NCBI GenBank assembly: GCA_039809245.1
Contig: JBDHUP010000003.1
Span: 1 to 39,068 of the forward strand
Source of the DNA: Minisyncoccia bacterium
GTDB taxonomy: Bacteria; Patescibacteriota; Minisyncoccia; Phycocordibacterales; UBA9973
Direction: 5' to 3'
DNA: 39,068 nucleotides
Shown here piece by piece: positions 3,591 through 4,096 of this stretch (its first letter is position 1; each line of letters begins with the position of its first letter). The position numbers and the translations under genes were made by a program. Under the pieces are notes generated by a model. The model saw nothing but the letters and a program-made list of their open reading frames with translations. It was not told the origin of the DNA and made no database searches.

Positions 3591-3672
3591 TAGTTTCGCA
3601 AGAAATCTCTTCTGAAAAGGTCCTCGGACTTTCTCACCAGACCATTTCCATAAGAGATTTCCTGCTTCACTA
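3591..3672 (-). repeat. Structured RNA/palindromic element, copy A (between atpE and atpF)
   Basis: mRNA strand UAGU-GAA-GCAG-GAAAUCUCUU-A-UGGAAA-U-GGUCUGG...CCGAGGACC-UUUUCA-G-AAGAGAUUUC-UUGC-GAA-ACUA; core shared with copy at 4004-4096. Confidence 0.8.
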
Positions 3673-3726
3673 GGTTTAGCACCTAGCTTCTAGCAACTAG
3701 GGATTCTAATTGCCAGTAGTAAGTTG

Positions 3727-3948
3727 CTAACTGATTGAGAATGCGATAACAAGCGCATAGATAGCAATCGCTTCTGCGAAAGCTGATGCAATAAGCATAG
3801 GTACGAAAACTTTACCTGAAGCTTCAGGGTTACGGCCGATAGCTTCCATAGCTTTTGAACCGATCATACCGATACCGATACCAGGGCCAATAGCTCCAAG
3901 ACCGATAGCTAGCGCTTTTGCAAGAGGTGCAAGATTTATAGGTTCCAT
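3727..3948 (-). CDS. atpE: F0F1 ATP synthase subunit c (probably H+ type)
   Basis: GxGxGxG helix, RNPE loop, catalytic Glu in FAEAIAIY; lacks the Q and ES(T) Na+ signature. Confidence 0.98.
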
Positions 3949-4003
3949 AATAGAATATAAAAATTTATAACTAATAATTTTTCGACTTTGATAATTATTT
4001 CCA

Positions 4004-4096
4004 AACTTCGTCGGAAATTACTTTTAGAAAGGTCCTTGGATCTCCGAACCTTTCGGCTCGGCCAGACCATTTCCAAAAGTAATTTCCGACTACGTT
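4004..4096 (-). repeat. Structured RNA/palindromic element, copy B (between atpB and atpE, overlapping the atpB stop)
   Basis: Perfect 16-bp inverted repeat 4010-4025/4075-4090 enclosing GGAAAUGGUCUGG-[CCGAGCC GAAA GGUUCGG]-AGAU-CCAAGGACCUUUCU. Confidence 0.8.

Follow-up and report, generated by a model that had tools for sequence, protein, structure and literature searches.

Hairpins flanking atpE in a Minisyncoccia genome belong to a dispersed family of palindromic repeats

Does a pair of similar hairpins on either side of the gene for ATP synthase subunit c act on that gene, or does the pair belong to something else? The question is raised by the minus-strand atp operon in the first 5 kb of contig JBDHUP010000003.1 of a Minisyncoccia bacterium (assembly GCA_039809245.1), of which positions 1 to 39,068 of the forward strand were analysed (the window). 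The genome to which it belongs, here G000, comprises 780 kb in 38 contigs (numbered from C1). The operon runs atpB, atpE, atpF, then atpH, atpA, atpG; atpE (subunit c, 73 aa, 3727..3948) lies between atpB (subunit a, 4090..4995) and atpF (subunit b, 3082..3573), all on the minus strand. These open reading frames (ORFs) were taken from an ORF list, and their names were assigned from translations and gene order. A preliminary description of the locus had proposed that the hairpins are recognition sites that set the stoichiometry of subunit c, and had offered a lineage-specific repeat as the alternative. We conclude that both are very probably members of a dispersed family of selfish palindromic repeats, resembling Rickettsia palindromic elements (RPEs) or MITEs (transposable elements of the miniature inverted-repeat kind), and not a control signal for atpE; the family has many copies in unrelated genes, mostly in frame, and so looks like selfish DNA.

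The two copies were delimited from their folds and from model matches. The upstream copy (4008..4092, minus strand) begins at the TAG stop codon of atpB and is of a long-core type, GGTCTGGCCGAG and CGGAGATCCAAGGACC enclosing a GAAA hairpin; the downstream copy (3596..3667, minus strand), in the atpE-atpF spacer, is of a short-core type in which GGTCTGGTGA and CCGAGGACC are separated by 6 nt. As had been described, both spacers fold on the mRNA strand into a long hairpin: 4092..4008 gives an 81-nt hairpin of -49.7 kcal/mol (z -9.9) and 3667..3597 a 66-nt hairpin of -34.0 kcal/mol (z -5.3), with 0 of 200 shuffles as good in either case. The plus-strand folds are weaker by about 10 kcal/mol, at -39.9 (upstream) and -24.2 (downstream). 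The 5' half of the core is an exact 14-nt match, TGGAAATGGTCTGG, found on the minus strand at 4062..4075 and 3637..3650; these are its sole two matches in the window with up to two mismatches allowed, against 0.17 expected, and two or more were obtained in 4 of 100 shuffles. The other details reported for the core, a GGUCU/GGACC helix, a bulged U, a 2-nt purine bulge and a variable apex, are all present in the folds, as are the GG/CC pairs.

Other parts of that description do not hold. The outer stems had been called unrelated, whereas the two copies align end to end at 79% mean column identity, share GGAAAT..CT..T/..A..AG..ATTTC, and differ by paired changes. The supposed 3x3 purine internal loops are paired, GGAAA with UUUCU/UUUUC, in both folds, and these columns covary. 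Pairing between the two cores around atpE is not predicted, since a 516-nt segment folds with both hairpins local. The absence of a named RNA family was borne out by Rfam 15, which gave no gathering-level match at the hairpin region; its sub-threshold matches (E up to 10), to mir-255 (E 0.3) and CRISPR-DR50 (E 0.66), are generic hairpin matches. Neither an intrinsic terminator (a hairpin with a U tract) nor a promoter was found at either hairpin, the tails being GAAGUUUGG and GAAACUAAU.

A dispersed repeat family

Building a covariance model from both copies and searching this genome and its relatives, as the preliminary description had suggested, revealed a dispersed family. The model made from the two atp copies (R1) matched four further places in G000 and copies in 19 of 36 same-genus genomes. 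A second model (R2), rebuilt from 30 best-strand copies, matches nine distinct places in G000, and a regular expression for the core adds a tenth. The upstream atp copy is the top match of both models (107 bits with R1, 81.7 bits with R2); the downstream copy scores 86 and 72 bits. Two of the other copies in G000 are in frame inside genes, truB (C1:141630-141721) and uvrB (C9:8888-8971). The rest lie in the spacer between genes read as nrdA and nrdB (C2:11696-11778), in the rplJ-rplL spacer (C7:31842-31913), at C1:63387-63466, where an apparent T-box leader precedes the start codon of a gene read as ileS and the copy separates the two, at C3:57240-57311, outside the window, where the dnaK start follows 16 nt downstream, at C7:6331-6424, with divergent genes on either side, and at C6:2103-2125. 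The short core of the downstream atp copy recurs at C7:31842-31913, C3:57240-57311 and C6:2103-2125. At the atp pair the strand of the element is the mRNA strand; at the other placed copies, apart from that between divergent genes, the element is in the opposite orientation, its reverse complement being present in the host transcript.

The element is an imperfect palindrome of 72-105 nt, and copies fold at -21 to -57 kcal/mol. It is closed by the motif AAGC...GCGA (variants TAGT...ACGA and GAGC...GCGT), followed by an outer stem of 21 bp whose sequence drifts while pairing is kept. The core consists of one bulged pyrimidine, the GGUCU/GGACC helix, a 2-nt GA/AA bulge, a GG/CC step and a variable apex; its consensus is asymmetric, (Y-bulge)GGTCTGG[C]...[T]CCGAGGACC, and the U-G pair in the GGUCU/GGACC helix is invariant in 29 of 30 copies. 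Three types of apex were distinguished: type A, CCGAG-[small hairpin]-CGAGGAGAU, as in the upstream atp copy; type B, with a C-rich unpaired stretch, (N)CCTCGTCCTCCCTCNT; and type C, a short TGA-6 nt, as in the downstream atp copy.

The stems covary. In the 30-copy alignment, 96.9% of cells are standard pairs (74.1% in shuffles) and changes are seen on both sides at 21 of 28 pairs; the covariation score is 0.623, compared with 0.18 in shuffles (0 of 500 as high) and 0.10-0.16 in slid controls. Column pair 19-109, for example, is GC in 10 copies, AU in 7, UA in 7, GU in 3 and CG in 2. The fit of this alignment to the model favours pairing, and covariation by itself does not identify an RNA, as palindromic DNA pairs on both strands.

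The family is abundant in this genus. Counts with R2 are lower bounds here, 47 candidates having been scored per genome: at least 80 of 93 genus genomes have matches, with up to at least 19 each, and 13 of the 93 have none among the candidates scored. One single-contig genome (G085) has 11 matches, 8 on the plus and 3 on the minus strand. G077, the closest genome to G000 by AtpB (92.1% identity), has one weak match only. Outside the genus, the order yields matches in 10 of 150 genomes, each in a different family (11 of 151 with G000 counted); in an even sample of the phylum the figure is 0 of 150 other genomes (1 of 151 with G000), which doubles as a specificity control. In these searches the family does not extend beyond one order of Paceibacteria (Patescibacteria). 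Exact-pattern scans of a viral contig collection with two core patterns, bearing on a phage vector, gave no match.

In a minimum free energy scan of G000 (C1, C2 and part of C3), the truB copy is the only intragenic strong hairpin, the other strong hairpins being mostly terminator-like and beside tRNA genes. Very long, perfect AT-rich hairpins with stems of 20-25 bp adjoin tRNA-like sequences at C1:125821-125920, C1:136581-136680, C1:139241-139340 and C1:103141-103240; these look like post-tRNA terminators, unrelated to the repeat. The only gathering-level Rfam matches in the window are two tRNA genes, at 5274-5345 and 24378-24459, both on the minus strand. Upstream of ileS, and outside the window, the leader at C1:63467-63663 (minus strand) contains GGTGGTACCACG and a hairpin with a T tract and, read by eye, is an apparent T-box riboswitch.

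DNA contigs from another study bear on the physical continuity of the atp locus. Two cross the upstream copy without insertions or deletions, and none crosses the downstream copy. Contigs of two runs from another study stop at 3586 and at 3616, where the downstream copy has its edge; these ends fit assembly breaks at a repeat, which is only a hint. The contigs considered came from four runs, two of DNA and two labelled RNA-Seq but probably DNA as well; they cover parts of atpF, atpE and atpB, show no joints, starts or ends, and bear neither way on expression or processing.

Copies inside genes and the favoured strand

To the preliminary suggestion of a lineage-specific, REP-like repeat, which the distribution supports, must be added that most copies are in frame inside genes. 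We assembled 109 distinct copies from 91 loci, 31 of these from R1 matches and 60 more from the best R2 matches in the genus. The sample consists of high-scoring matches and includes orthologous copies; clustering at 85% identity reduces it to 86 clusters with the same proportions. ORFs of 150 aa or more run through 81 copies, of which 68 are antisense and 13 sense. In the intergenic remainder of 28, 15 copies are antisense and 8 sense; 3 stand between convergent and 1 between divergent genes, and 1 is of unknown setting. Over the 104 copies of defined orientation, 83 are thus antisense to the host transcript and 21 sense.

Hosts named with Pfam (19 ORFs, in which all but one of the initial 22 in-frame copies lie; the UvrB protein of G000 was named separately) comprise RNase HII, PheS, PheT, TruB, Tgt, UvrA, UvrB, UvrC, LigA, PolA, an Nramp transporter and a TraG-like protein. 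PheT has two copies in one gene, Tgt is occupied at the same site in four genomes, and UvrC has two copies in opposite orientations. Read-through of an insert adds 26-35 residues to the protein. The UvrB insert of G000 corresponds to residues 435-467, which have no counterpart in the solved UvrB 9gy7_E; the stretches on either side align without a gap to residue 428 of that structure, and the insert therefore falls between two aligned halves.

Many copies encode similar hydrophilic peptides, such as ..FERSSDEGGRGARPSQK.., and the conserved core could on that account be attributed to selection on an inserted peptide module with a function at the protein level. Relative to a GTCTG anchor, however, all six registers are in use (38, 17 and 13 copies in the antisense registers; 7, 4 and 2 in the sense registers), and they yield unrelated peptides: ..ERSSDEGGRGARPSQK.., ..QKVLGRGGREPVPDH.., ..GPRTKEDEEPDH.., ..DGLAPRPPSSEDL.., ..SRSGSSSSLVRGPEK.. 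and ..TVWPS..RRSEDL.. (recognisable by ERSSDEGG.., QKVLGRGG.., GPRTKEDEE.., DGLAPRPP.., SRSGSSSS.. and TVWPS..). Conservation is therefore at the nucleotide level, not that of the peptide. As 28 of the 109 copies, moreover, are intergenic, we reject protein-level selection on the insert and give this explanation virtually no weight.

UvrB also shows that this repeat is not alone. Among 81 aligned UvrB proteins from Paceibacteria, 25 have 15-56 extra residues at one linker site after 'RPVSA' (alignment columns 658-730), and smaller insertion hot spots are present at columns 327-347, 502-551 and 818-837. R2 recognises 5 of the 25 linker inserts and 2 inserts at another UvrB site. Nearly all the other linker inserts are strong DNA palindromes of unrelated sequence, such as NSPLEEYPQGEVDESNASTPSLRATPQE and FPPLLTKEGNDGRF..., which fold at -25 to -74 kcal/mol compared with -8 to -25 for pieces of equal length from the same genes; the one clear exception, L069, folds at -12 kcal/mol. 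Unrelated palindromes thus occupy UvrB sites, and several families of in-frame hairpin elements exist in Paceibacteria.

The two strands of the repeat are not equivalent. Taking as forward the strand that is the mRNA strand at atpE, G-U pairs in the outer stems of the 109 copies number 105 for the forward strand and 21 for the reverse strand, or 72 and 12 after dereplication (binomial p ~1e-11), although the alignments behind these counts were fitted to the model structure and the copies are top-scoring ones, and so lean towards pairing and G-U. The bias is found in both halves of the score range (58:7 in the top half, 47:14 in the bottom half). That G-U pairs favour the minus strand at atpE is true, as had been noted, but the selection on RNA read from it does not follow: the dereplicated wobbles divide 59:7 where a copy is antisense to its host gene and 13:5 where it is sense. 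Since the bias holds where the mRNA contains the complement, the favoured hairpin is that of one fixed strand of the element. A simple strand bias of mutation is an unlikely cause, the GC skew at third positions of coding strands in G000 being 0.002. We infer that it is as single-stranded DNA that the forward strand is recognised or corrected; that it acts as an RNA of its own is less likely.

Occupancy of the spacers around atpE

Sites that are filled in one genome may be empty in another. In the uvrB gene of L006 the site is filled; in L090, whose UvrB is 92% identical to that of G000, it is empty, the protein reading PVSAD-PSN-YPGQ without the 27-28 extra codons of G000. For the atp operon, atpE was recovered in 53 of 61 genus genomes searched. 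We compared 30 atpE loci of the genus. A length of 38-64 nt is typical of the spacer between atpB and atpE, and the pair of elements with core around atpE is present in G000 and G035 only (AtpB 84.2% identical). One further locus, in G024, holds a relic in which the same outer stem as in G000 is kept and the core is replaced by 12 nt. G077 has spacers of 54 and 60 nt around atpE, without the element. Because the AtpB of G077 is nearer to that of G000 than are those of G024 or G035, the simplest history, as far as these sequences allow, would be an old insertion that was cleanly lost in G077.

G026 has a type-B copy in its atpE-atpF spacer in antisense orientation. Other long hairpins are seen at the same spot after the atpB stop in L039, L045, L055, L056 and L064; in L045 and L064 the outer stems are GGAAATTAT-like with no recognisable core, and these hairpins may be decayed or related elements. 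This varied occupancy, together with the other hairpins at the same spot, makes the spacers around atpE look like permissive landing sites. Relative to G000, the histidine-rich C-terminal tail of AtpB in G077 (L038) contains an additional EPARPPVTGSGGK-like segment, which may be a trace of another insertion.

A structured feature does accompany atpE, but it is not the repeat. Directly 3' of the atpE stop, the spacer of G000 folds into two small native hairpins (3669..3716, minus strand) outside the repeat, and a hairpin or hairpin pair follows the atpE stop in nearly every relative in the genus. The atpE-downstream spacers of 29 relatives (L038-L066), 60-173 nt long, all fold at -16 to -60 kcal/mol. 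Sequences of these native hairpins vary by subgroup, CTAGGTGCTAG-type in some and ACATCTGGTC..GACTAGGAGT-type in others. We conclude that the native hairpin is the conserved structured feature beside atpE; it could be a genuine stabiliser or attenuator.

These comparisons bear directly on the proposal that the pair consists of cis-acting RNA signals, nuclease or protein sites or stabilisers, that excise, protect or loop the atpE mRNA so that more subunit c is made. Segmental mRNA stabilisers are known around the cistron for this subunit (bacterial atpE, chloroplast atpH), and exonucleases can in principle be slowed by any two stable hairpins that bracket a cistron. The likeness is real in that structured RNA lies on both sides of the c-subunit gene: both copies are mRNA-sense and very stable in the transcript, and the pair is retained in G035. 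The repeat, however, is not conserved with atpE, and the same element stands in unrelated genes. Of the ten copies in G000, just two flank atpE; the pair is found at 2 of 30 genus atpE loci, with a relic at 1, and the closest relative, G077, has neither copy; the same spacer holds an antisense copy in G026; 83 of 104 copies are antisense to the host transcript; there is no terminator-like tail; the wobble asymmetry is no stronger in sense than in antisense copies; and a different, native hairpin is already 3' of atpE in nearly every relative. Copies so numerous, found in both orientations and unconnected with atpE, contradict a role in setting atpE stoichiometry, and we regard such a role as very improbable. 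Nothing ties the atp hairpins to c-subunit stoichiometry. The repeat is not conserved with atpE and occurs in unrelated genes and on the other strand. Both copies will nevertheless fold in the atp mRNA, and could have side effects on its stability or translation.

Mobility, maintenance and known counterparts

The selfish-repeat explanation would account for the locus as follows. The elements spread, or once spread, by a transposition-like copying, with a single-stranded form of the forward strand probably the form that is recognised or maintained; they would have inserted into permissive spacers of the highly expressed atp operon, where the pair probably represents one insertion followed by local duplication, or a second hit. 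Mobility is suggested by the distribution of the family only.

Several observations weigh against this explanation. Neither a transposase nor an autonomous parent element was identified, nor was a target-site duplication. Filled and empty sites, when compared, show no duplication, though in flanks too diverged to reveal one, and no parent insertion sequence turned up in a search that was not exhaustive. The stems stay paired in seemingly vertical copies (the Tgt site in four genomes; the upstream atp copy in G000 and G035), so something beyond neutral decay is at work and 'dead selfish DNA' alone is insufficient. The intergenic copies of G000 cluster in highly expressed operons (atp, rplJL, dnaK, nrdAB, ileS), which could reflect co-option. 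To these may be added the lean of the pair counts mentioned above and the results obtained for the transposase family PF01797 (the Y1 HUH transposases of IS200/IS605 and RAYT type). This family has no member in G000, at 100% completeness; over 93 genomes, element and Y1_Tnp counts are uncorrelated (Spearman 0.16, p 0.12), 65 having both, 15 elements only, 10 Y1 only and 3 neither; and at the two Y1 loci where element copies were placed, the copies do not flank the Y1 gene.

The persistence of pairing and the conserved core would also be expected of a site that benefits the host at the DNA level, such as one bound by a nucleoid or replication protein, or a signal for single-strand initiation, kept by selection rather than selfish; the strand-specific structure fits as well. 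Against it, copies per genome range from 0 to at least 19 among close relatives, with 13 of 93 genomes lacking a match among the candidates scored; the sister genome G077 has its one weak match; copies are lost or internally deleted without replacement; and none of the other genomes in the phylum sample has the family. We consider such a site improbable.

A further alternative is a repeat of the repetitive extragenic palindromic (REP) or REPIN type, whose movement and upkeep would depend on a cognate, REP-associated Y1 (HUH) tyrosine transposase, with the hairpin of the forward strand, as single-stranded DNA, for its recognition target. REPs and the REPIN-RAYT system likewise feature imperfect hairpins with strand-specific features, and the asymmetric bulged core and transcription-independent wobble of our repeat fit recognition of one DNA strand as a hairpin. 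Y1_Tnp is common in the genus: PF01797 scores above its cut-off in 74 of 93 genomes, with up to 8 per genome, mostly in ORFs of 210-280 aa that carry the motif YH[IL]YNRG, as at L204:153-932(+), L207:1947-2618(+) and L208:1399-2124(-). The family is missing, however, not only from G000 but from G035 and G077; copy numbers do not follow one another, 15 genomes having elements only; and where ORFs were listed around Y1 genes (seven loci) and element copies placed (L204 and L207), the nearby copies are in frame in an adjacent gene read as pheS (L204) and in genes read as RNase HII and peptidase (L207), leaving the Y1 gene unflanked; nor is a flanking arrangement seen at L208. REPs are typically shorter and extragenic, whereas 74% of copies here are intragenic, and the many Y1 genes may serve other hairpin families such as the unrelated UvrB palindromes. 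With none in G000, uncorrelated counts and no flanking, a cognate Y1 enzyme of this kind is unlikely, and we keep it as a rival of low probability. As to what might mobilise the selfish repeat, the leading guess is a hairpin-recognising HUH/Y1 enzyme acting in trans, which we put forward as speculative and, on balance, doubtful.

MITEs such as the Correia/NEMIS elements of Neisseria are co-transcribed with their neighbours and act on mRNA. The present repeat is like these in having short palindromic copies in operon spacers that fold in the transcript, and a NEMIS-like side effect of the sense-oriented atp copies on mRNA stability is conceivable. It differs in that neither a signature of terminal inverted repeat with target-site duplication nor a parent insertion sequence is seen, and the copies are mostly intragenic and antisense.

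The closest parallel is with RPEs, palindromic repeats of about 150 bp in ten families, with many integrations into unrelated genes of R. conorii, often in frame (2024 review, PMC10969869). The likeness is broad: dispersed hairpin repeats in a small, reduced genome, in frame in housekeeping genes and read through, also intergenic, with orthologous sites sporadically occupied and several families (here including the UvrB palindromes). The repeat described here is shorter (72-105 nt) and belongs to another phylum, Patescibacteria; it is further set apart by a core far more conserved than its stems, by the use of six registers and by its strand-specific wobble bias. The comparison is one of kind only and claims no kinship in sequence. 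Neither 'Patescibacteria' nor 'Candidate Phyla' occurs in PMC10969869, and the full text of open-access and bioRxiv papers yielded no description of such elements in Patescibacteria. Our best reading is a repeat family like the RPEs and new for Patescibacteria.

For the biology of this group, the result removes the attractive story of a dedicated RNA device for c-ring stoichiometry, and puts in its place the RPE phenomenon, in-frame palindromes in essential genes, in a second, unrelated group with reduced genomes and at high frequency (81 of 109 copies intragenic). Inserts of this kind can pass for regulatory RNAs; they distort protein alignments and marker-gene phylogenies, and may inflate and fragment assemblies of Patescibacteria, of which contigs from two other runs that stop at the downstream copy give only a hint. 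The transcription-independent wobble bias offers a handle for finding the machinery that maintains or moves the elements. It is possible, though we hold it to be less than probable, that Paceibacteria possess an undescribed system of strand-specific hairpin elements, in many families, that colonise essential genes in frame and, whichever way transcription runs, are kept as hairpins on their own strand by machinery for the recognition of single-stranded DNA, either a mobilising or a palindrome-correcting enzyme of a new kind. Such a system would then be a major, overlooked source of lineage-specific insertions in the proteins of the Candidate Phyla Radiation.

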